Positions 1,614 to 35,965 of a stretch of 36,271 nucleotides of DNA are shown here, in pieces; position 1 is the stretch's first letter, and every line of letters starts with the position of its first letter. Location of the stretch: the IMG/VR virus record IMGVR_UViG_2695420676_000012; one strand, written 5' to 3'. Source of the stretch: a virus (Duplodnaviria > Heunggongvirae > Uroviricota > Caudoviricetes). The notes beneath the pieces were generated by a model that ran no database searches, was not told the DNA's origin, and saw nothing but the letters and a program-made list of their open reading frames with translations. Both the position numbers and the translations under genes were made by a program.

Positions 1614-1653
1614 GCCCCTATCGTTATAATACGCGGTAGGGGCGTTTTTGTTT
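1614..1653 (+). terminator. terminator-like hairpin plus T-run
   Basis: 'gcccctA...Taggggc' inverted repeat followed by 'gtttttgttt'; overlaps the TTG-initiated extension of the recombinase ORF. Confidence 0.4.
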
Positions 1654-1662
1654 GGAAATGGT

Positions 1663-3342
1663 ATGAAAACTAAACTGTATTCGTATATTCGCTTCTCGTC
1701 TATGCGTCAGAATGATGGTTCGAGTTATGAACGACAAATCAGGATGGCGAGAGAGGTTGCGGCAAAGTATGACCTTGAACTGGTAAATGATTATCAGGAT
1801 CTGGGTGTATCTGCGTTTAAGGGTGCTAACTCCAAAACAGGGGCGCTATCTCGTTTCCTTGATGCAATAGGTAGATCCGTTCCTGTTGGTAGCTGGCTAT
1901 TCATCGAAAACTTGGACCGTTTATCCCGTGCCGATATTGTCAGTGCGCAGGAGTTATTCCTTTCAATCATCCGTAGGGGGATAACCATTGTTACTGGCAT
2001 GGATAACAAGATCTACTCGCTGGATACTGTTACCGCTAACCCGATGGACCTGATGTTCTCCATCCTTTTATTCATCCGTGGTAATGAGGAAAGCCAGACT
2101 AAGCGCAATCGTACTAACTCAAGCGCACTGATTAAGATTAAAGCCCATCAAGAAAATCCCCAGAATCCGGCAGTGGCAATCGAGGAAGTTGGAAAGAATA
2201 TGTGGTGGACTGATACCACTTCCGGTTATGTGTTGCCTCATCCTACATACTTCCCTGTTGTTCAGGAGATTGTGGAATTACGGAAGAATGGACGTTCAAC
2301 CGCCGAGATACTGGATCACCTTAACGAGACATATACACCGCCACCAGCGGTTAGTAATAAGAAGCATTCAAAATGGTCACGGGCAATGGTTGAAAGGTTG
2401 TTCCATACCCGCGCTTTGATTGGTATCAAGGAGGTCTCTGTCGATGGTGTTAACTATGAGTTAAAGGATTATTACCCTCGTGTTATTGATGATGCTACGT
2501 TCTATCACCTTAAGAAAAATATTGGTGCTAGAGCATGGAACTTTGGAGACAAGGAAGAAGTTAAACCGATCCCCCTGCTTAGTGGTATTGGCCTATTGAA
2601 ATGTGATCATTGCGGTTGCGCTATGGTTAAAGTGAAGGGAACGAACAAACGTTCTGACCAGTATCGTTATACATGTGATGCGACCCGTTCACGTAGACTT
2701 GATTGCGAGCATCCAAACTGGAGTTTTCGAGGTGATCAATTAGAGAAAGCTGTATTGCAATTGCTGGCTGATAAAATCTGGATTGCTGAGGACAAGGCTA
2801 ATCCGGTTCCGGCGTTGAAAGTACAGGTTGATGAAATATCACGCAAGATTGATAACCTGATTGCCCTTTCTGCTATGACAGGAGCAACGAAGGAGTTAGC
2901 CGATCAGATTACTACCCTCAATAGCGAGCGTGAAACACTCTACAATCAGATCAAGATGGCAGAAGAGGAAATGTATTCTGTGGACTCTCAAGGCTGGGAG
3001 AAGCTCGCAGAATTTGATTTAGAAGATGTTTATAACGAGGAACGACTAAAGGTCCGGTTTAAGATTAAGCAAGCTCTAAAGCGGATCGGGTGTAGCAGGA
3101 TTGACAGGAATAAAAACTTGTTTGTACTGGAATACATCGATGGAAAGACCCAGAGAGTTGTAATAGAAAATTCAAGAGGAACGAGGAAAGGACAAATCTT
3201 TGTCGATTTGAAAACTATCAATGATAGGCAGATTCTGGAGAGTAACGGGCTTGTTTTGCATCCATGTTTAGACATGCTGACAGATAAGAACTGGAAACCA
3301 GAAGAGGAAATACCAGGTCCATTACAGGAATTTGGAATTTAA
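1663..3342 (+). CDS. large serine recombinase (integrase/resolvase family)
   Basis: N-terminal resolvase catalytic motifs 'YIRFSSMRQ' and 'GVSAF...LFIENLDRLSR'; downstream Cys cluster 'CDHCGCAM...YRYTCD...LDCEH' (zinc ribbon) and coiled-coil segment; track ORF opens at 1648 with TTG, first ATG at 1663. Confidence 0.8.
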   Translation: MKTKLYSYIRFSSMRQNDGSSYERQIRMAREVAAKYDLELVNDYQDLGVSAFKGANSKTGALSRFLDAIGRSVPVGSWLFIENLDRLSRADIVSAQELFLSIIRRGITIVTGMDNKIYSLDTVTANPMDLMFSILLFIRGNEESQTKRNRTNSSALIKIKAHQENPQNPAVAIEEVGKNMWWTDTTSGYVLPHPTYFPVVQEIVELRKNGRSTAEILDHLNETYTPPPAVSNKKHSKWSRAMVERLFHTRALIGIKEVSVDGVNYELKDYYPRVIDDATFYHLKKNIGARAWNFGDKEEVKPIPLLSGIGLLKCDHCGCAMVKVKGTNKRSDQYRYTCDATRSRRLDCEHPNWSFRGDQLEKAVLQLLADKIWIAEDKANPVPALKVQVDEISRKIDNLIALSAMTGATKELADQITTLNSERETLYNQIKMAEEEMYSVDSQGWEKLAEFDLEDVYNEERLKVRFKIKQALKRIGCSRIDRNKNLFVLEYIDGKTQRVVIENSRGTRKGQIFVDLKTINDRQILESNGLVLHPCLDMLTDKNWKPEEEIPGPLQEFGI

Positions 3343-26338: not shown

Positions 26339-28246
26339 TTAGAACGATGTTACCCAGCTACGGCCTCTATTTGGGCGTCTGGCGATGTTTTGACGTTGCG
26401 GTCGTGTGATTGGCTTAGTTTCTTCGATTTGCTCGTCAGATTGCGATTCAGGAGCTTTTACGGGTTCTTCTTTAACGCTGTTTAAGCTGTCTTTCATTGC
26501 AATGAGTTTATCCCATGACATTTTTGAAAGGACGTAGCGAGAAGCAGCATAGCTATAAACCAGACAGTCGAGAGCCTCGTTTCGGGTACTACCTGGATTT
26601 TTCACCCAACGAACACCAGTAGTAGTACGCTTGATGGATTCACTCAAAAGCTGATCGAGATAATCATCAGGAACGGTTTCTGATATTTCTAAGCCAATAT
26701 GAGGATTATCTTTCAGGTTTCTAACCAGCATTTCACGAACAGCGGATTTACCAACGTTAACGCCCAGCATAAGCAATTCATGACCACCTGTGCGGGTAGG
26801 TTTAACCGGAATCACTGGAGCATTACCAGATGAACTACCTTTAATAGCGTGTAGGTTCTTCCACTTACCACAAATACGGTATCCGGCTTGAGTGAATCGA
26901 CCGTTTGATGTATCGAGGAAGCTGGCGAGCATTGGCACACGTTCACCATTAACGTTATAGAATTTGGTTTTCTTGAAGTTAACCAGACGATCCCATACAG
27001 GTGATTCGTATCGTTCACAGTTATGATCGTAAAAGCTACGGTGATCCAGAATGTAAACCTTATCTTTCGCTACACCTAAGATGGTAGATTCTGCGCGATC
27101 CAATTGCTGGTCAATTCCTGAGCACAAGAAAATCACGTCATCAGGGATATTCTCGATAGAAACATCTGTTTTGAGTTGTTCCAGTTCATTTGCTTCTACT
27201 GCCGTGTCCTGATCATCGTATACCTTGCCTAACACGGTGTTATAAAATGATTGTAAATCAAAGGATTGCCACGCATGACTAAAATCAACCACACAAGCGC
27301 GGATCGTGCTGAAAGGTGAATACAGACGGCTAATCCAGAATCCTGCTACTTCACTTTCACGGGTTGCTCTCCACTCGCCTTGCGCTACTGCCCTGATTCG
27401 TTCCCCTTCTGTCCATGCGTTCTTACAGTGGGGGCAAATATAACGAGCGGTATCAGGATCGGGTAAGTTCTTACCATCGATGTTACGCCATTCAAATTGA
27501 ACGTTTTCCCACTCGATCACCTGGTGTTCCCCGCAATGAGGACACGGAACAAAAAACATACGCATATCGCTTGATAACCATTGCTGGTTAATGCTTCCGA
27601 GCTTACTGGTCGGGGTACTGGATACGACTAATCGGCCTTCATCGCCAAAGGTAGTTAAACGGTTAGCAGCCAGTGCCACCGGATCACCTTCTTCTGAGGC
27701 TGTAGCAGCATCGATTTCGTCTAGTAGTCCGACCTTTGCGGTCTTACCACGTAGGGTCGATGGACTGGTTAGCGATACCATGTACAGGAAGTGATTCGTT
27801 TTTAGCTGTAGCTGGTTATTGTTGTTAACCGCATTGCGATCATTCTTGTCTGTAACCACGTCTTTTAATGCATCACATGCTTCGATAGACGGTCGGATCT
27901 TACCAGCGAGATATTGAGACATTTCTTTAGCGGTTGATTGTCCGATAATCATATTGCATGGATCGTTAGCCATCTGGTTAAACAGGATGCCGTTCAAGAT
28001 GGTAGTCTTTCCGATCTGCGCACTGGTCATCAGAACATACTTTTTCTTGTTCTCAAGGAAAGGAGCATCAATCATACCTTTCTGGAATGACAGCAATTTA
28101 ACTTTATCCCCAGCTTGAGGACCATCTACCAGCACCATATTAGCTTCGCACCATTCAGAAGGAAGGAGTTTAGGCGGTGGCGTAATATATTTGGCTGCAT
28201 TTCTGAGAATCTTTTTTAATTTGGCCTTATTAGAAATTAGTTTCAT
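26339..28246 (-). CDS. terminase large subunit, lambda gpA family, 635 aa
   Basis: Walker-A-like 'AQIGKTT'; 'PCPHCGEHQ' and 'YICPHCK' zinc-finger-like motifs; 'GIDQQLDR'; '[14 protein letters not shown]'; order and spacing match gpA as I recall it. Confidence 0.9.
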
Positions 28247-28333: not shown

Positions 28334-28936
28334 ATGCTAATTAATCAGCAACAAAGAGATGAATTAGAATTAGCCTTGTCTTGTACCGATCATGAATATC
28401 GTTTGCCAGTAAAACATAAGCACTTAAGGACTGATTACACAACATCCGGTTTTAGCCGTGAGGAAGCGAAAGAGATTTTAATAGAATTTTACCGTGATAA
28501 TGGTTATACAGACGTTCACAACTTCTTTAAGAAGCATAGAACATCACATACAGAGTTTCGGAGAGTCCGAGATTGGTTTGATTTTGATATCAAGCGTTAT
28601 TATCGCATTGATGACGGTCCTATCTATCGGTTGCAGTGGAAGCCGATCCGAGAAGTGTTGAAACAGAAGAGATTGAATCACGCTATTACACGCTATCGTA
28701 ACGAGGCTTTTAAGAAAGGCTATGGTGATACAAGGGAATTGTTTGTAGAACTCGCTAACGTGCGATATAGCCACTATTACAACGATCCTAAGTCCTTCTT
28801 CGAAGTGCTGCGCAAGGTTGATATAAGTCGGGGTACATACTATTCACGGTTGAAGAAGTACGGGATTAAGGCAGAGTTCTTTATGTCGGTTGACGATGGA
28901 GAACTTTTTCCTATAAAATGTAAGTCCTCTAAATAA
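28334..28936 (+). CDS. basic Tyr/Arg-rich protein with C-terminal HTH-like module, 200 aa
   Basis: C-terminus '[25 protein letters not shown]' resembles the two small HTH proteins at 28966 and 32781; SD 'AAGGGGG'. Confidence 0.5.
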
Positions 28937-28965: not shown

Positions 28966-29196
28966 ATGACTATGACTACTAAAGCTACTCGCGGTCGCCC
29001 TGCCCGTTTTAATCGTGAACAACTGGCAGCGATTGTAAAAGCGTACTATCAAGCACCGAAAGGTAAAGAGAACAAAGAACGGGTATTAAATGAGCATGGC
29101 TTATCTATAGCCCAGCTATACAAATCCCTACATAAAGTTGATTTGAAATTCTTTGTTCAGGTTGACGGTGAAATGGTAGAAGCAACAGGAATTTGA
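28966..29196 (+). CDS. small HTH DNA-binding protein (RP.KF.RE...HTH module), ~76 aa
   Basis: 'GRPARFNREQLAAIVKAYY...HGLSIAQLYKSLHK...VQV'; start at ATG with SD 'GGAGAAA' (track ORF opens with GTG at 28939); paralog of 32781-32960. Confidence 0.5.
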   Translation: MTMTTKATRGRPARFNREQLAAIVKAYYQAPKGKENKERVLNEHGLSIAQLYKSLHKVDLKFFVQVDGEMVEATGI

Positions 29197-29202
29197 TTCT
29201 CT

Positions 29203-29233
29203 AGGCCAATCCTTCGGGGTTGGCCTTTTTTAT
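29203..29233 (+). terminator. Rho-independent terminator
   Basis: 'aggccaa-tccttcgggg-ttggcct' followed by 'tttttat' immediately after the 28966-29196 gene. Confidence 0.6.
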
Positions 29234-29237
29234 ATCC

Positions 29238-29453
29238 GCTCAAAACTGAGCACATCTCTAAGTCATTGATTCTTCCGATGAGTCCAGATTTGGACTGATC
29301 TATAGATGCCCTCAAAACTGAGGAGATGTGCTTAAAGTTCAGCGTATCTATCTAAGTGGTTGATTCTTTCGAGAAATTCAAACTTGAATCAATCGGCGCA
29401 AAACTGCGCTCATCTCTAACCTATTGATTCTTCCGATAAATCCAAATCTGGAT
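29238..29453. repeat. three tandem ~65-85-nt units each carrying two conserved hairpins with compensatory substitutions (candidate structured RNA / protein-binding array)
   Basis: Hairpin 1: GCTCA-AAAC-TGAGC (29238), CCTCA-AAAC-TGAGG (29310), GCGCA-AAAC-TGCGC (29396). Hairpin 2: AGTCCA-GATT-TGGACT (29281), ATTCA-AACT-TGAAT (29376), ATCCA-AATC-TGGAT (29440). Conserved 'ttgattcttccgat' between them. Confidence 0.6.
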
Positions 29454-29465
29454 GCATCAGATACA

Positions 29466-29497
29466 AAAAAGCCCAGCGCAATTATGCGCCGGGCGAT
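29466..29497 (-). terminator. Rho-independent terminator for the minus-strand Rha-like operon
   Basis: Minus transcript 'gcccggcgc-auaau-gcgcugggc' followed by 'uuuuuu', directly after the 29501 stop. Confidence 0.5.
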
Positions 29498-29500
29498 TAA

Positions 29501-31355: not shown

Positions 31356-31386
31356 AGTGAATCAAGTAAGTTCACTATTATTTATA
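31356..31386 (-). promoter_or_regulatory. TATAAATA box followed by GTGAA/TTCAC hairpin upstream of the 30877-31335 gene
   Basis: Minus-strand 'TTATAAATAatAGTGAActtacttgaTTCACT...AGAGGA...ATG'; same architecture as 4414-4456 and 32508-32537. Confidence 0.4.
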
Positions 31387-31588
31387 AAGAGAAAATTCTT
31401 GTTATTATGAAAGGTGATTGTATTCAGTCGGGCAAAGCCCTCCTTCATGATTTGATTAAATTATGATCAAAACGAAGAAGTATCTTTAGAATATAATAAT
31501 CTTTCTTTTGGAGAAATAATAATCAGGAAGTAATTTAGCAACCGAAGGTTGCAATCCCGAAGGGATACCAATACCTTTCATGATCATT

Positions 31589-31846
31589 AAAGTGATCTAG
31601 AATCATCTAGTAACCAGTTAACTACTATTATCTTCAAAGTGATTATTACTATCTTTCTAGAATCAGTTAGTAACTAGTATTAAATCCCTTTCGAGAAAAT
31701 CCTTTCAGAAGTGATTCTCGATGCCACGCAGTGGCGTCGCAGACGTTTGAGAGTGAGCGAAGCGAGCGAGCAAACTAGTTAATTCCTTCTAAGACCATCT
31801 AGTATCATCTAGTTTAAATTAGTTGTTACTAGAAGTAATTGGTTAG
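31589..31846. repeat. CTAG-rich imperfect direct/palindromic repeats in an ORF-free region
   Basis: 'aaagtgat' x3 (31589, 31636, 31708); 'tctagaatca(t/g)(c/t)tagtaac(c/t)agt' x2 plus variant 'tctaagaccatctagtatcatctag'; palindromes 'agttaact', 'actagt'. Confidence 0.45.
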
Positions 31847-32017
31847 CGCTTCGCGCAGTCGGGCTACGCCCTCCTAATTATCTTTTTGGTTATTTGTTGT
31901 TTTTAGTTTTACACATGAGCGTAGCGAATGTGTTATATAATATCTATGCACGCCCGATCCCCCGCTTTTACCCCTCGCTAAGTTAATGTTTTATAAAGAG
32001 TTTTTATCACCAATCCT

Positions 32018-32216
32018 TTTCAGGGGCAAAAATGAGGGGCAAAAATTAGATTTTCAGGGGCAATTATTGGCATTTCAGGGGCAAAAATGAGGGGCAAAAT
32101 CACTGTTTCCCAGAATTTCAGGGGCAAAAATAGTAGGTTTCAGGGGCAAAAATGGGATAGTAGAATCTTGGGGATTTTATTCGGGGGCAAAAATTCAGAA
32201 TTTCAGGGGCAATTCC
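32018..32216. repeat. direct-repeat (iteron-like) array: 9 copies of (T)TCAGGGGCAA(A)AAT core
   Basis: 'GGGGCAA' at 32023, 32036, 32057, 32078, 32091, 32121, 32143, 32184, 32206; exact 27-nt duplicate 'tttcaggggcaaaaatgaggggcaaaa' at 32018 and 32073; spacings 13/21/21/13/30/22/41/22 nt. Confidence 0.8.
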
Positions 32217-32408
32217 CATCAAATATTTTGATAGAAAATTCTTGTATATTATTTAATCAAAAAATCACCAAAAAGTGGCGTAAGTTAATGATTTAAAAAG
32301 AATTGTCAAAAGGTCTCCGTGCTATAATAGGTTATAAAGGTTGATAATCCTGATCTACAATTTTCAAACAAAAATTTTGATAGTCATTTCTCGCTTAGGT
32401 CAAGTGCA

Positions 32409-32437
32409 TTGACAACTGTCAAGGATTATTTTATACT
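32409..32437 (+). promoter_or_regulatory. consensus sigma70 promoter with palindromic -35 (TTGACA-AC-TGTCAA)
   Basis: 'TTGACA' (32409-32414), 17-nt spacer, 'TATACT' (32432-32437); -35 lies in a perfect inverted repeat. Confidence 0.55.
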
Positions 32438-32507
32438 TTTTCTCACTGGTGGGGGTTGAAATTTTCTAAACAGTCCCCATATAGATGATAAGCAAGAATT
32501 TCCACGT

Positions 32508-32537
32508 TATAAATACATGTGTGAAATGATTGTTCAC
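32508..32537 (+). promoter_or_regulatory. TATAAATA box followed by GTGAA/TTCAC hairpin
   Basis: 'TATAAATA' 32508-32515, hairpin 'gtgaa-atgattg-ttcac' 32521-32537. Confidence 0.4.
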
Positions 32538-32574
32538 TTCTGAAAATCTCCTGATTCACTGCTAATTCATACAT

Positions 32575-32600
32575 CACTGGTTAGATATACAGTGCTTTTT
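32575..32600 (+). terminator. terminator-like hairpin plus T-run in the leader region
   Basis: 'cactg-gttagatata-cagtg' followed by 'cttttt'. Confidence 0.4.
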
Positions 32601-32658
32601 CGGTTGAATATTGTACGAATTGATTAATAATTAATCTTCTCTTTAGCAATTCGTGCTC

Positions 32659-32686
32659 CCACTGATCGGATATACAGTGGTTTTAC
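32659..32686 (+). terminator. terminator-like hairpin plus T-run
   Basis: 'ccactg-atcggatata-cagtgg' followed by 'tttta...gggttttc'. Confidence 0.4.
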
Positions 32687-32707
32687 AGGGTTTTCTGACA
32701 ATCATTT

Positions 32708-32747
32708 TATAAATACAAGTGTTCAGAGCGAAATGCTCTTTTTTTAA
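32708..32747 (+). promoter_or_regulatory. TATAAATA box followed by hairpin plus T7 run (attenuator-like) before the 32781 gene
   Basis: 'TATAAATA' 32708-32715; 'agagc-gaaat-gctct' 32725-32739; 'ttttttt' 32740-32746. Confidence 0.4.
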
Positions 32748-32780
32748 GAAATTATTAATCCACATGTGAGGAATCGACTG

Positions 32781-32960
32781 ATGGCTAGACCTGTTAAGTT
32801 CACTCGTGAAATGATTGTTGATATTGCTAAACGCTTTTACAGCGACACTGAGCGAGGCGGGGAAAACTTCTTTAAGAAGGAAGGAATTGATAGAAGCGGA
32901 TTCTACAAGCTAATGAAGAAATACGAAATTCAGGTAAAGATTAACGTTCAAGTTTGTTAA
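32781..32960 (+). CDS. small HTH DNA-binding protein, paralog of 28966-29196 (~59 aa)
   Basis: 'ARPVKFTREMIVDIAKRFY...GIDRSGFYKLMKKYEIQVKINVQV'; start at ATG with SD 'GAGGA' (track ORF opens with GTG at 32766). Confidence 0.5.
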   Translation: MARPVKFTREMIVDIAKRFYSDTERGGENFFKKEGIDRSGFYKLMKKYEIQVKINVQVC

Positions 32961-33074: not shown

Positions 33075-34037
33075 ATGTTATTTTCCGCTAACTTTTTCAC
33101 TAACGAAGTAACCAACGCTAAAGCAGTTATCAAATTTGGCACCGAAGCAAACAAGAAGATTCAGCCGAAAGTTGTTGCTCATGTTTCCTTTGCGCAGCAG
33201 AAATCCGCTTTCGCTGGCTTTAAAGCACATCGTGAAGCACTGATCGCGGCTGGCTTTGGTGTTGACGGTAAACTGCCTAACGGCATTCGTAAAGCAATCG
33301 ACCGCGTTAAACCTGCTAAAGACGTTGCAGTAGACCACATCGTTACTTTCACCGTTAAGAACTCTTCTGAACTGTTCCACCTAGTGATTGCTGGTGATAC
33401 TGCTATCGTTTCCGCTCCTAACATGGATTTTCAGGATACCGCTGATTGCAACATTACCTTTGGTCGTCGTAAAGAAGTTACCGGAAAAGCTAAACTGAAC
33501 TTCACCAAATCCGGCAATCCTTACTTTGCTGTATTCTTTAACAGCCACGCTACTGAGAAAGAAGTAGTAGAACTGGTTGCATATGAAGGTGAAGAAAAAG
33601 CACGTATTGAATCTTGCGACGCTTTCGTAGAACTGGAAGCACAGGTTAATGCTGTTTCTCCGGTTGCTGTTGAAGATCGTTTCTCTGCACTGGAAGCACA
33701 GATCGCAGAACTGAAAGCTGCACTGAAAGAAAAAGACCAGATCATCGAAGCACAGAAAGCTGAGATTGAAGAACTGAAAGCTAAAGAAGTTGCTCCGGTT
33801 GCTGTTGAAGCAGATCAGGAAGTTGAATCTAAAGACTTCTTTACTCAAGCGGTTGAATCTAAAGACAAACAAGCTCTTTGGATTCTGCTTAACGAAAAGC
33901 GTACTGTTGCAGACGTTGCAGAATGGAACAAATACCTGATTAAGAAAAATGGTTCTTCCGTTCAATTCATCGATTTAATGACAGTTAAAGTTTTTGATGC
34001 GTTCGAAAATGTGTTCGACGTTCGCAAAGCAGCTTAA
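33075..34037 (+). CDS. hypothetical abundant protein with coiled-coil and internal 'SPVAVE/APVAVE' repeat, 320 aa
   Basis: Strong high-expression codon bias (ctg, cgt, gct, gaa, aaa); SD 'GGAG'; downstream of the consensus promoter. Confidence 0.6.
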   Translation: MLFSANFFTNEVTNAKAVIKFGTEANKKIQPKVVAHVSFAQQKSAFAGFKAHREALIAAGFGVDGKLPNGIRKAIDRVKPAKDVAVDHIVTFTVKNSSELFHLVIAGDTAIVSAPNMDFQDTADCNITFGRRKEVTGKAKLNFTKSGNPYFAVFFNSHATEKEVVELVAYEGEEKARIESCDAFVELEAQVNAVSPVAVEDRFSALEAQIAELKAALKEKDQIIEAQKAEIEELKAKEVAPVAVEADQEVESKDFFTQAVESKDKQALWILLNEKRTVADVAEWNKYLIKKNGSSVQFIDLMTVKVFDAFENVFDVRKAA

Positions 34038-35121: not shown

Positions 35122-35673
35122 TTAAGACACATCAAATTCATCGTCTTCTTCTGGTTCTTGTTCCGGTTCATCGATTAATGGTAATTCTTCTTCCTCGTCA
35201 TCGCCTAAATCCGCATTTTCGAACAAGTCCCCTACTTCATTTAAACGACGCTCGATGATCTCCCTTAGCTTATTCTTCAATGTTTTCTGATCAGTGGCAG
35301 ATTCGAGAATTTCTAAAGCGTCGATTGTGGCGATCTGCAAAATAGTCTGTTTCACCTTTCCGCAATATTCCGCTAGCTCCTGCTCAACATACCCGACCGG
35401 AATCAGGAGATTCATTGCTTCCTGGTTCTCTCGTTCGATAGCGTCAGCCTCGCCTCGCGCCTTGCGTAGTTTCTCTTGTTGGATTTGGGCTTGTACATCC
35501 ACTTCCCGCAAAGGATTGATTATGTTGGTGAGTATCCACTTAATGGCTAGATCGCGAGGACAACGGCGGGTATTAGAATTGAATGGCAAACCGCGTTCTT
35601 TCCATTTAGTGACAGCCGGAAGTGAATAACCATACATTTTCGATAATTCTGTTAGTGTAATTTCTGCGGACAC
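35122..35673 (-). CDS. Nu1-like small terminase subunit candidate (winged-HTH N-terminus, acidic C-terminus), 183 aa
   Basis: N-terminal 'LTELSKMYGYSLPAVTKWKERGLPF...LAIKWIL' resembles my recollection of lambda Nu1 'KKQLADIFGASIRTIQNWQEQGMPV...VIKWY'; size matches Nu1 (~181 aa); GTG start with SD 'GGAGGA'. Confidence 0.45.
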   Translation of the reverse strand: MSAEITLTELSKMYGYSLPAVTKWKERGLPFNSNTRRCPRDLAIKWILTNIINPLREVDVQAQIQQEKLRKARGEADAIERENQEAMNLLIPVGYVEQELAEYCGKVKQTILQIATIDALEILESATDQKTLKNKLREIIERRLNEVGDLFENADLGDDEEEELPLIDEPEQEPEEDDEFDVS

Positions 35674-35698
35674 TTTTTAATCCTCCATATTAGAAAAT

Positions 35699-35729
35699 TT
35701 GCGTAATGGTATTTAGATGAATTACGCAA
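35699..35729. promoter_or_regulatory. perfect 9-bp inverted repeat with 13-bp spacer (operator or packaging-site candidate)
   Basis: 'TTGCGTAAT-ggtatttagatga-ATTACGCAA' 26-56 nt upstream of the terS-like start. Confidence 0.35.
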
Positions 35730-35905
35730 TAAAACGCGCTGTAATGAGATGAGAGAGATCGGCGTGTGATAAGGCGTTGAAGGGTGTTTTAGCTCGTTGT
35801 GGAGTGTGCTGGAGGGCTTAACTAAACCGTTTTGAAAAATGCTCACGCACATCAAAAACCGGGGTGCCGAAAACTCGCTTTATTTCACTCGTGGAACAGT
35901 ACCTT

Positions 35906-35934
35906 TTGATTTTGTCAAGTCTTTTTTATAAATA
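35906..35934 (+). promoter_or_regulatory. sigma70-like promoter candidate with TATAAATA -10 region
   Basis: 'TTGATT' (35906-35911), 15-16 nt spacer, 'TATAAATA' (35927-35934); ATG at 35966. Confidence 0.4.
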
Positions 35935-35965
35935 ATCGAAAATATTTTTCACACGAGGGCAAATC

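Follow-up and report, generated by a model that had tools for sequence, protein, structure and literature searches.

The prophage and its divergent intergenic region

The window, that is, the whole stretch of 36,271 nucleotides analysed here, is an uncharacterised E. coli prophage inserted at hicB. Its genes include those for a serine integrase and for a terminase with a gpA-type large and a Nu1-like small subunit. About 1% of complete E. coli genomes contain a member of its family, in which no replication or immunity genes can be recognised. One copy of the prophage family carries mcr-1.

The literature on hicB prophages holds nothing on this prophage, and a plasmid collection searched with it returned no match. 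In the phage collection, no relative was found apart from a 75-nt segment of RB49, and the nearest TerL there is only 43% identical. No tRNA or tmRNA was found in the window.

Pfam, PHROG, NCBIfam and PDB sequence searches gave no informative family for the 320-, 153-, 110-, 113-, 59-, 76- and 200-aa proteins. An exact-protein look-up gave no record for the 153-aa protein. Its AF2 model has a generic alpha/beta fold, which matched nothing in PDB at E <0.02. Alignment of p59 against genome contigs gave, among the matches listed, one distant match and none outside Escherichia/Shigella.

The 1.4-kb intergenic region separates a leftward operon (153-aa, 110-aa and Rha-like proteins) from a rightward operon (59-aa HTH-like and 320-aa proteins). 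The first-pass annotation had described it as free of ORFs, and indeed 31366–32780 contains no ORF of at least 60 aa except 32087–32296 (69 aa), which is a translated iteron array. The region is modular, in the order of hairpins with a 75-nt motif, CTAG/AAAGTGAT repeats, a GC hairpin island, a 17%-GC tract, about ten iterons and a conserved promoter/operator block. We typed 34 loci, 15 as type A, 1 as B, 15 as C and 3 as D. The features in the window are listed below.

31425–31444, + strand: H1 motif CAGTC-GGGC-AAA-GCCC-TCCT, a direct repeat of 31856–31875 with 90% identity
31451–31526, + strand: 75-nt motif (TTGATTAAATTATGATCAAAACGAAGA...), of which RB49-like (Krischvirus) T4-type phages have two copies in tandem in an intergenic region, at 84% identity overall and 95% over a 41-nt core
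31538–31566, + strand: two adjacent C-GAA-G triloop hairpins, gcaaccGAAggttgc and atcccGAAgggat; DNA fold -8.5 kcal/mol, z = -4.85
31589–31714, no strand assigned: CTAG/AAAGTGAT repeat block with AAAGTGAT three times and TCTAGAATCAnnTAGTAACnAGT twice; 29% GC
31715–31775, + strand: GC-rich island of type-specific sequence, 59% GC, with the hairpins gccacGCAgtggc and cgtcGCAgacg and the mini-hairpin motif GCGAAGC
31735–31745, + strand: hairpin cgtcGCAgacg, within the GC island
31757–31763, + strand: mini-hairpin motif GCGAAGC, within the GC island
31751–31860, no strand assigned: imperfect inverted repeat of about 110–115 nt, with outer arms 31751–31764 and 31847–31860, inner arms 31781–31810 and 31811–31840, and the CTAG palindrome 31798–31833 as its centre
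31846–31871, - strand: adjacent hairpins gcgcTTCgcgc and gggcTACgccc, which are C-GAA-G and C-GTA-G triloops on the - strand; the second repeats H1
31876–31910, + strand: T-rich tract (TAATTATCTTTTTGGTTATTTGTTGTTTTTAG), 17% GC, candidate unwinding element or U-tract
31911–31941, + strand: hairpin acacat-GAGCGTAGCGA-atgtgt, which contains GCGTAGC and is followed by TATAAT; DNA fold -4.2 kcal/mol
31966–31976, - strand: inverted iteron-like copy (GAGGGGTAAAA), single
32014–32217, + strand: iteron array (TTTCAGGGGCAAAAAT), about ten direct copies at a spacing of about 21–22 bp or multiples of it
33075–34037, + strand: gene of the 320-aa ORFan protein, with an N-terminal part of about 240 aa matching the iteron type one-to-one, a coiled coil in the centre and a C-terminal domain that can be exchanged separately

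Repeats, hairpins and their neighbours

The repeats and the GC island are real and far from random, and make up a conserved cluster of small DNA hairpins and repeats. Every element reported by the first-pass annotation is present where it had been placed. The sequence described as heading three imperfect repeats occurs as AAAGTGAT at 31589 and 31636 and as GAAGTGAT at 31709. The longer repeat, reported twice with a third variant, is found as TCTAGAATCAnCTAGTAACnAGT at 31596 and 31656 with 87% identity, and weaker copies lie at 31788 and 31798.

The CTAG richness is also borne out, as 8 of the 50 sites in the window fall within 31597–31832 (236 nt), where about 0.3 are expected. CTAG is scarce window-wide, where the 50 observed sites fall short of the 82 that a Markov model predicts and of the 133 that base composition predicts. 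It is enriched about 25-fold here despite a genome-wide counter-selection. The CTAG/AAAGTGAT block is common to several iteron types, its copy number differs among the relatives, and indels in them fall at the repeat boundaries. A toxI-like type III antitoxin array was considered and rejected, since the repeats are neither tandem nor near-identical.

The island at 31715–31775 is GC-rich as had been noted, with 59% against 41.5% for the window and 34.8% for the intergenic region, a level reached by 0.55% of 61-nt windows. The hairpin seen inside it is gccacGCAgtggc at 31723–31735. In types B and C, the island has another sequence with the same kind of hairpins, and one hairpin is left in type D. 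The motif GCGAAGC is not specific by itself, being found elsewhere too and missing from type D.

GC-rich triloop hairpins are concentrated here. Five of the seven in the window lie inside 31430–31871. Of the C-GNA-G triloop hairpins with a stem of at least 4 bp, six of eight lie in 31538–31871 (334 nt), four on the + strand and two on the - strand, when about 3.2 are expected per 36 kb. Such C-GNA-G and GCGNAGC mini-hairpins are known from the phage G4 complementary-strand origin, RSF1010 ssiA and the N4 early promoters (PMC13037366).

The hairpins persist across sequence-divergent versions of the region, with compensatory changes. The pair gcaaccGAAggttgc and atcccGAAgggat is identical in types A, C and D, and other hairpins take its place in the relatives L032 and L035. 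In the pair at 31846–31871 the stems are kept and the loops vary among relatives; the TTC to TAC loop change in type C leaves a GNA loop on the - strand. The type C counterpart of the 31911–31941 hairpin has a compensatory CG to TA change in L035. Within a type, the conservation of the block is extreme, and nucleotide diversity is 0–0.03 across 31727–31927 as against 0.1–0.26 in the flanking gene.

The island had also been said to pair with a GC-rich segment downstream. Such complementarity exists, GAGTGAGCGAAGCG (31751–31764) being 86% complementary to CGCTTCGCGCAGTC (31847–31860) and enclosing the CTAG palindrome 31798–31833, but the pairing is not the conserved feature. Counterparts of the inverted repeat were found in L033 (21 nt, 81%) and L032 (10 nt, perfect), and none in L036. 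The type C change from TTC to TAC breaks the pairing without compensation while the local hairpin is kept, so we rejected the long-range duplex as what is conserved.

To the left, the H1 stem changes compensatorily among relatives (GGGC/GCCC, GGC/GCC and TGGC/GCCA) and its loop is variable. Small ORFs around H1 were rejected because their reading frame is not kept between alleles. A promoter inside the 75-nt motif was rejected as well, because its candidate -10 (TATGAT) is lost in most relatives.

The RB49 intergenic region that has the 75-nt motif also has C-GNA-G hairpins, in + and then - orientation. This recalls the PeSL cassettes of RB49 and phi1 (PMC2839356, PMC4122927), which are likewise intergenic and combine stem-loops with AT-rich DNA, and the prophage has 75 nt at 84% identity in common with the RB49 region. 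PeSLs, however, have a consensus sigma-70 promoter and GGGG...CCCC stems, and neither was found in 31589–31870. There is no promoter of at least 10/12 in 31400–32300, the stems are not GGGG/CCCC and just the 75-nt sequence is in common. Moreover, the element that has the sequence here is a temperate siphovirus-like prophage.

To the right, the ATCTTT after the last hairpin is kept in all four types, and further AT-rich blocks of 20% GC lie at 31979–32013 and 32218–32300. The oriC 13-mer consensus is not enriched in the AT-rich blocks and stays at chance level. A search for DnaA boxes gave a single one-mismatch box at 32756 and no cluster, with a window-wide count equal to chance.

Iteron-type origins have at least three direct repeats of about 17–22 bp in helical phase; the array has about ten, and it adjoins the CTAG/GC block and is not inside it. 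The array is about 100–250 nt away from the GC island, with AT-rich blocks of 17–20% GC in between. In the conserved block, the promoters have separate palindromic operators on either side (AAAWATTTTGATAG, twice), which are the same in all types.

Co-variation of island, iterons and 320-aa protein

Iteron type, GC-island type and the type of the 320-aa N-terminal domain associate perfectly in the 34 loci. There are four iteron types, four island types and four unrelated N-terminal domains. The GC island and the iterons are inherited together, as a single type-specific block.

Among the relatives, the region is a mosaic of alleles. The DNA between the iterons and the 320-aa gene recombines freely, as the 59-aa gene and the promoter block have two alleles each and both are seen with types A and C. 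The window and L033 are 99% identical in TerL, 99.6% in Rha and 97% in p59; their iterons and islands differ, and their 320-aa proteins are without similarity.

The 320-aa protein is rare, with only 12 relatives among 1.84 billion representative proteins, and has no match in Pfam, NCBIfam, PHROG or PDB. Its AF2 model, made without an alignment, has a pLDDT of 44 and is unusable.

A candidate origin and the rival readings

The first-pass annotation had offered two options, structured RNA or a site that a protein recognises, for instance an origin. The iterons, the AT blocks, the type association and the conserved hairpins fit both options and give no choice between them, and there is neither a convincing promoter nor an Rfam family. 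Tentatively, we take the iterons to be an origin and the 320-aa protein to be its initiator, the likeliest of the readings but somewhat less probable than not. The CTAG/GC block would then be a type-specific hairpin flank plus shared protein-binding repeats, that is, the left-hand accessory part of a replicon control region.

The iteron/320-aa pair is the sole candidate replicon, because no polymerase, helicase, primase, RNA polymerase or Rep domain was found among the approximately 25 prophage ORFs scanned. The 320-aa protein would bind the iterons via its N-terminal domain, act as a replication initiator like lambda O or the plasmid Rep proteins and open the adjoining AT-rich tracts. Since it has no homology to any known family, we infer this function.

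The hairpin cluster would serve as a GC clamp limiting the opened region, or its hairpins would form on separated or supercoiled strands. Such hairpins could tell host replication proteins where to enter or prime, in both directions, and host DnaG or PriA might conceivably use them. The CTAG repeats would be bound by a conserved DNA-binding protein of the phage or the host. Candidate binders are the paralogous 59-, 76- and 200-aa proteins, which would modulate origin use or the divergent promoters. Only a single hairpin and a single CTAG unit are present in type D, which means that the iteron/protein pair can do without the elaborate island.

The layout resembles the iteron origins (lambda ori with O, P1 oriR with RepA, and F, pSC101 and RK2) in its phased direct repeats by AT-rich tracts and a GC-rich segment, with an initiator-like gene adjacent. 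In both, the N-terminal DNA-binding domain, putative in the 320-aa protein, changes together with the repeats, and the C-terminal part is exchanged independently as in the lambdoid O proteins. The prophage differs in that no similarity was detected between its 320-aa protein and any Rep or O family. Its iterons also lie 860 bp ahead of the gene, from which a promoter block and another gene separate them, and DnaA boxes are absent.

The hairpins resemble those of RSF1010/R1162 oriV, which has iterons, GC- and AT-rich segments and the inverted ssiA/ssiB hairpins, as well as the G4-type single-strand initiation signals and the DNA mini-hairpins d(GCGNAGC)/C-GNA-G (PMC13037366). The likeness lies in GNA-loop GC hairpins on both strands and an inverted repeat beside iterons. 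Among the motifs of the window are CCGAAGG, which has been reported in ssiA (PMC13037366), and also GCGAAGC and GCGTAGC. The prophage, however, has no RepB'-like primase or helicase, and its block has many more hairpins.

A bolder version, which we regard as quite unlikely, takes the C-GNA-G cluster as a DNA-level signal. The hairpins of both strands would extrude from supercoiled or initiator-opened duplex and recruit the host priming/loading machinery or RNA polymerase at a temperate dsDNA phage origin. The related hairpin sets by the 75-nt motif in RB49-like T4-type phages would be the same kind of element, and unrelated coliphages would exchange this hairpin-based origin or initiation module among themselves. 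Its driver would be a new family of initiators, with unrelated N-terminal domains that swap together with the iterons.

Several points weigh against the origin reading. The 320-aa protein is without detectable homology to any initiator, DnaA boxes do not cluster, the oriC-type 13-mer is not enriched, and the prophage encodes no primase to use ssi-type hairpins. Island and iterons are 150–250 bp apart and without homology between types, so that their link could be mere physical proximity, and the low diversity of the block could reflect a young haplotype block. Type variation of the iteron/protein pair in near-identical phages would be equally expected for an immunity system. The one-sided type C stem changes and the type C terminator favour an RNA-level reading over the origin reading.

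That RNA-level reading, the main rival though doubtful on balance, is a rightward, highly structured non-coding RNA of about 200–470 nt. It would start near 31415 or in the CTAG repeats (TAGAAT as -10) and end at the double hairpin and T-rich tract around 31846–31890. The hairpins could then be RNA stem-loops, and the RNA could regulate replication, immunity or the neighbour operons or insulate the iterons from transcription. The RNA fold is more stable than shuffles, with z = -4.5 for 31415–31905 and z = -2.6 for 31700–31905. No match at the gathering score was found in Rfam for the whole window, the best sub-threshold E-value being 1.2 in a search to E 5.

The last hairpin in type C, followed by ATTCTTTTT, scores as a canonical + strand terminator, but in the window and type A the T-tract begins 9–10 nt past the stem and the scan calls no terminator at 31846–31905. 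In RB49, a terminator-like stem-loop immediately precedes the related 75-nt motif, and hairpins and a T-rich tract come after it (PMC2839356). The best promoter within 31366–32300 scores only 9/12, and the -10 of the candidate at 31381–31408 is not conserved.

Six type C sequences have three one-sided stem changes in all, each of them (3/3) G-U compatible on the + strand, which has a chance p of about 0.125, and one pair is compensatory. However, the GNA triloops are on both strands, and the TTC to TAC change is meaningful on the - strand alone.

A lysis/lysogeny switch is unlikely. Here the iterons would be operators bound by the 320-aa protein, as immunity repressor or as some other regulator. 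The CTAG palindromes and repeats would be operators too, for a further regulator (Rha or one of the 59-, 76- and 200-aa paralogues), and the four types would be heteroimmune. The region does lie between divergent operons, specificity types that differ in otherwise near-identical phages are typical of immunity regions, and the CTAG-containing dyads are operator-like. No CI-like repressor was recognised elsewhere in the prophage. But six to fifteen helically phased direct repeats are typical of Rep or centromere binding and not of repressor operators, and the separate type-invariant palindromic operators already flank the promoters. Such a switch would leave the GC hairpins unexplained and the phage without any replication function.

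It is very unlikely that the block has no function of its own and consists of recombination scars or remnants of mobile promoter/stem-loop cassettes, like the RB49-type PeSLs, in a tolerant intergenic region. The segment in common with the RB49-like phages, the variable repeat copy number with indels at the repeat boundaries and the allele mosaic could all be so explained. Against it, the hairpin architecture is kept in four divergent types with compensatory stem changes, within-type conservation is extreme, and the block is rich in a CTAG that is counter-selected elsewhere.

We give hardly any credence to the GC island as the cos packaging site of a lambda-type terminase with the CTAG repeats as small-terminase binding sites. 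The phage should have a cos site because its terminase is of the gpA type. In lambda, GC-rich cohesive ends are flanked by repeats, and the island resembles lambda cos (cosQ-cosN-cosB) in being GC-rich, in having repeats at its sides and in belonging to a phage whose terminase subunits are of the gpA and Nu1 types. However, the island does not co-vary with the terminase: the GC islands differ between the window and L033 (TerL 99%, TerS 80% identical) and between the window and L032 (TerS 93% identical). Nor is the island beside the Nu1-like TerS gene (35122–35673), which is 3.3 kb off. Upstream of that gene lies another GC-rich region, which includes an inverted repeat, at 35674–35965, and cos would be expected near 35.7–35.9 kb.

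If the block is an ordinary non-coding RNA or terminator block, it is of merely local interest. If confirmed, the origin reading would establish a new initiator family with exchangeable, unrelated DNA-binding domains and an origin layout with an unusual density of DNA mini-hairpins. It would also connect, at the sequence level, the intergenic regions of temperate phages with those of T4-type phages. Four specificity types occur naturally in phages that are otherwise nearly identical, so that a swap experiment is ready to hand.

Layout of the intergenic region

The pattern at 31589–31870 is not chance, and the repeats, palindromes and GC-rich segment listed in the first-pass annotation were all found where it placed them. 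CTAG is depleted across the window as a whole, and 8 of its 50 sites fall within 31597–31832 against about 0.3 expected. The GC-rich segment (31715–31775) has 59% GC versus 41.5% for the window, a level reached by only 0.55% of 61-nt windows. The claim that 31366–32780 is ORF-free holds, as its sole ORF of at least 60 aa is a translation of the iteron array. Hairpins are clustered as well: five of the window's seven GC-rich triloop hairpins lie within 31430–31871, and six of its eight C-GNA-G triloop hairpins within 31538–31871 (3.2 expected per 36 kb).

Features of the intergenic region
31366–31420 (M1): leftward promoter region of the 153-aa gene
31420–31590 (M2): hairpin H1 (31425–31444, +) in the motif CAGTC-GGGC-loop-GCCC-TCCT; 75-nt motif; two C-GAA-G hairpins
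31589–31714 (M3): AAAGTGAT and CTAG repeats; 29% GC
31715–31875 (M4): island of GC hairpins with an inverted repeat; at its end two hairpins, C-GAA-G and C-GTA-G on the − strand, the final one repeating the H1 motif
31876–31910: T-rich tract, 17% GC
31911–31941: hairpin containing GCGTAGC, then TATAAT
31966–31976: single iteron-like copy, inverted
31979–32013: AT-rich tract, 20% GC
32014–32217 (M5): about 10 direct, phased iterons (TTTCAGGGGCAAAAAT), spaced 21–22 bp or multiples
32217–32780 (M6): conserved promoter/operator/leader block directly upstream of the 59-aa gene
32320, in M6: extended −10 promoter TGcTATAAT between two AAAWATTTTGATAG dyads
32409–32437, in M6: near-consensus promoter TTGACA-17-TATACT
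Within M6: leader of ~300 nt with two CACTG...CAGTG hairpins (CACTGnnnnGATATACAGTG)
32725–32745, in M6: terminator just ahead of the 59-aa gene
32756, in M6: DnaA-box-like TAATCCACA

Covariation of the iterons with the 320-aa protein

We compared relatives from IMG/VR (L002–L016, L038–L063) and from E. coli chromosomes (L030–L036), whose iterons are of four types.

Iteron types
Type A (the window): TTTCAGGGGCAAAAAT
Type B: GGAATCTTGGGGATTT
Type C: AGTGTAGGTTT
Type D: ~15 copies of CGGGGAT and similar, on either side of an AT-rich 45-nt spacer

The ORFan 320-aa protein likewise has four versions of its N-terminal ~240 aa, with undetectable mutual similarity. The window and the relative L033 have unrelated versions, despite sharing TerL (99%), Rha (99.6%) and the 59-aa HTH-like protein p59 (97%). 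The iteron, N-domain and GC-island types are perfectly associated in 34 loci (15 A, 1 B, 15 C and 3 D). The p59 gene and M6, with two alleles each, separate the iterons from the 320-aa gene, and both alleles occur with both A and C; M6 has a wholly different allele in other relatives, such as L045 and L034. These alleles are shuffled between types A and C, and therefore recombination has taken place between the co-varying segments. Since mismatched iteron/N-domain combinations are never seen in the 34 loci despite this recombination, the covariation, our strongest result, shows, by comparison of sequences, a functional coupling of the iterons to the N-terminal domain.

Neither the C-terminal 76 aa of the protein nor the downstream gene follows the N-terminal type in its variation. 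This is the modular pattern of the lambdoid O proteins, whose C-terminal part is likewise exchanged on its own. A lone type B iteron (GAATCTTGGGGATTT) sits at 32155–32180 inside the type A array, and in type A relatives whose right-hand block is the alternative one, the array is followed by a few GTGTAGG copies resembling type C. Such stray copies may be traces of past between-type exchanges.

The GC island is part of the type-specific block, and the CTAG repeats are in the shared part. Between types, the island's sequence is swapped but its architecture is kept in A, B and C: several short GC hairpins, an inverted repeat, one or more terminal hairpins, then T-rich DNA containing ATCTTT. The stems change in compensation (GGGC/GCCC to CGGC/GCCG or TGGC/GCCA; in L035, one CG pair to TA), and the loops are variable. 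The elaborate island is not indispensable, because type D has just one hairpin and one CTAG unit. Its linkage to the iterons may be passive, as it lies 150–250 bp from them and there is no homology there between types. Within type A, nucleotide diversity is 0–0.03 over 31727–31927 versus 0.1–0.26 in the adjacent 153-aa gene; the low value may be due to a haplotype block and not to selection site by site.

Possible DNA-level and RNA-level roles of the hairpins

The first-pass annotation proposed a structured RNA or an origin-like site, and evidence for both is present and points both ways, singling out neither. A role at the DNA level is favoured by the loops, which belong overwhelmingly to the C-GNA-G class; those with stems of at least 4 bp are on both strands (four +, two −). 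This class gives exceptionally stable DNA mini-hairpins. The long-range pairing proposed by the annotation is genuine as complementarity: 31751–31764 and 31847–31860 are the outer arms of an imperfect ~110-nt inverted repeat around the CTAG palindrome 31798–31833. In type C, however, a TTC to TAC change breaks the pairing with GCGAAGCG and preserves the − strand GNA loop, which also counts for the DNA level. So do the C-GNA-G-type motifs known from the complementary-strand origin of phage G4, from RSF1010 ssiA (CCGAAGG) and from N4 early promoters (PMC13037366); CCGAAGG is present in the window at 31542–31548.

A rightward structured ncRNA or terminator ranks second and is doubtful. The + strand folds unusually well (z = −4.5). 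In type C, each of the three one-sided substitutions in stems is G-U compatible on that strand (chance p ~0.125), and the terminal hairpin is a canonical terminator on it. However, the type A terminal hairpin is not such a terminator, a promoter scan gave no convincing conserved promoter, and an Rfam search gave no family match.

The 75-nt motif (31451–31526) matches two tandem copies in RB49 at 84% identity, rising to 95% over a 41-nt core. These copies lie in the unannotated intergenic region between ORF165c and ORF164c and are found also in ~58 related Krischvirus genomes (~59 records in all), which are T4-type phages. In L001 they lie at 1501–1575 and 1652–1724. As in the window, C-GNA-G hairpins follow the motif: C-GTA-G and C-GAA-G on the + strand, and later C-GTA-G on the − strand. 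The RB49 copies lie in a part of that genome noted for its mobile cassettes of promoters and stem-loops, PeSLs (PMC2839356); the window segment falls outside the PeSL definition.

The prophage and the reading of the region

Neither the 50,697 phage records nor the 72,556 plasmids searched include a close relative of the window, and its intergenic region is matched in the chromosomes of 57–58 of 5,426 complete E. coli genomes. The prophage right end interrupts hicB in strains PE15 and DEC5A. Relatives share the order TerL, 200-aa, 76-aa, Rha-like, small ORF, ~150-aa, non-coding 1.3–1.5 kb, 59-aa and ~320-aa.

Prophage genes
1648–3342: large serine recombinase
Structural block, leftward: J-like tail tip and tail fibre in the window; portal and capsid genes named from the PE15 relative's annotation
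26339–28246: large terminase, gpA-type
28334–28936, 28966–29196 and 32781–32960: paralogous small proteins of 200 aa (domain twice), 76 aa and 59 aa (BLASTP E 1e-7 to 6e-4)
35122–35673: Nu1-like small terminase (PHROG 57 match; N-terminus lambda Nu1-like)
About 8 kb: small ORFan genes

The three paralogues have no family matches; the motif (G)RPxxF(T/N)RE is found at the N-terminus of the 76-aa and 59-aa members. Each of the three is a candidate DNA-binding protein that may recognise the repeats.

Between the convergent 76-aa and Rha-like genes lies another non-coding region rich in repeats (29197–29500), the densest hairpin bin of the window (11 per 500 nt). It opens with a clear terminator (~29203–29233), followed by three units of ~70–90 nt, each containing a first hairpin (cTCAAAACTGAg or gcgcAAAACTgcgc), the sequences CATCTCTAA and TTGATTCTTCCGAT, and another hairpin (TCCAnATnTGGA). 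In PE15 (L031 23096–27749), an ISApl1-mcr-1-pap2-ISApl1 composite transposon lies in the prophage directly downstream of the 320-aa gene homologue. In E. coli rl0044 (L030 18476–24600), a ~6-kb remnant from the Rha-like gene to hicB still has the entire non-coding region and iterons, the array being called a 69-aa hypothetical protein by PGAP.

The window ORFs scanned gave no recognisable polymerase, helicase, primase, Rep or CI-like protein. An immunity or operator region is an unlikely reading, and non-functional mosaic DNA is somewhat less likely still. A cos site at 31589–31870 is very improbable, because phages with 99% identical TerL have different islands and the Nu1-like gene has its own GC-rich upstream region (35674–35965; inverted repeat GCGTAAT...ATTACGC), which is more likely to be cos. 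The Nu1-like gene is 7 kb from the gpA-type gene, with the putative replication/regulatory genes in between.

In the most coherent reading, a tentative one, the iterons would be the phage origin and the 320-aa protein its initiator, with the CTAG repeats and GC island as the origin flank. M3 would then be an array of putative binding sites for a conserved DNA-binding protein, and M4 a type-specific hairpin cluster that might bound the AT-rich tract or supply strand-specific structural signals. Among these readings, the covariation is the sole demonstrated step. The iteron array (32014–32217) and the 320-aa protein (33075–34037, +) are a candidate new initiator/origin pair.
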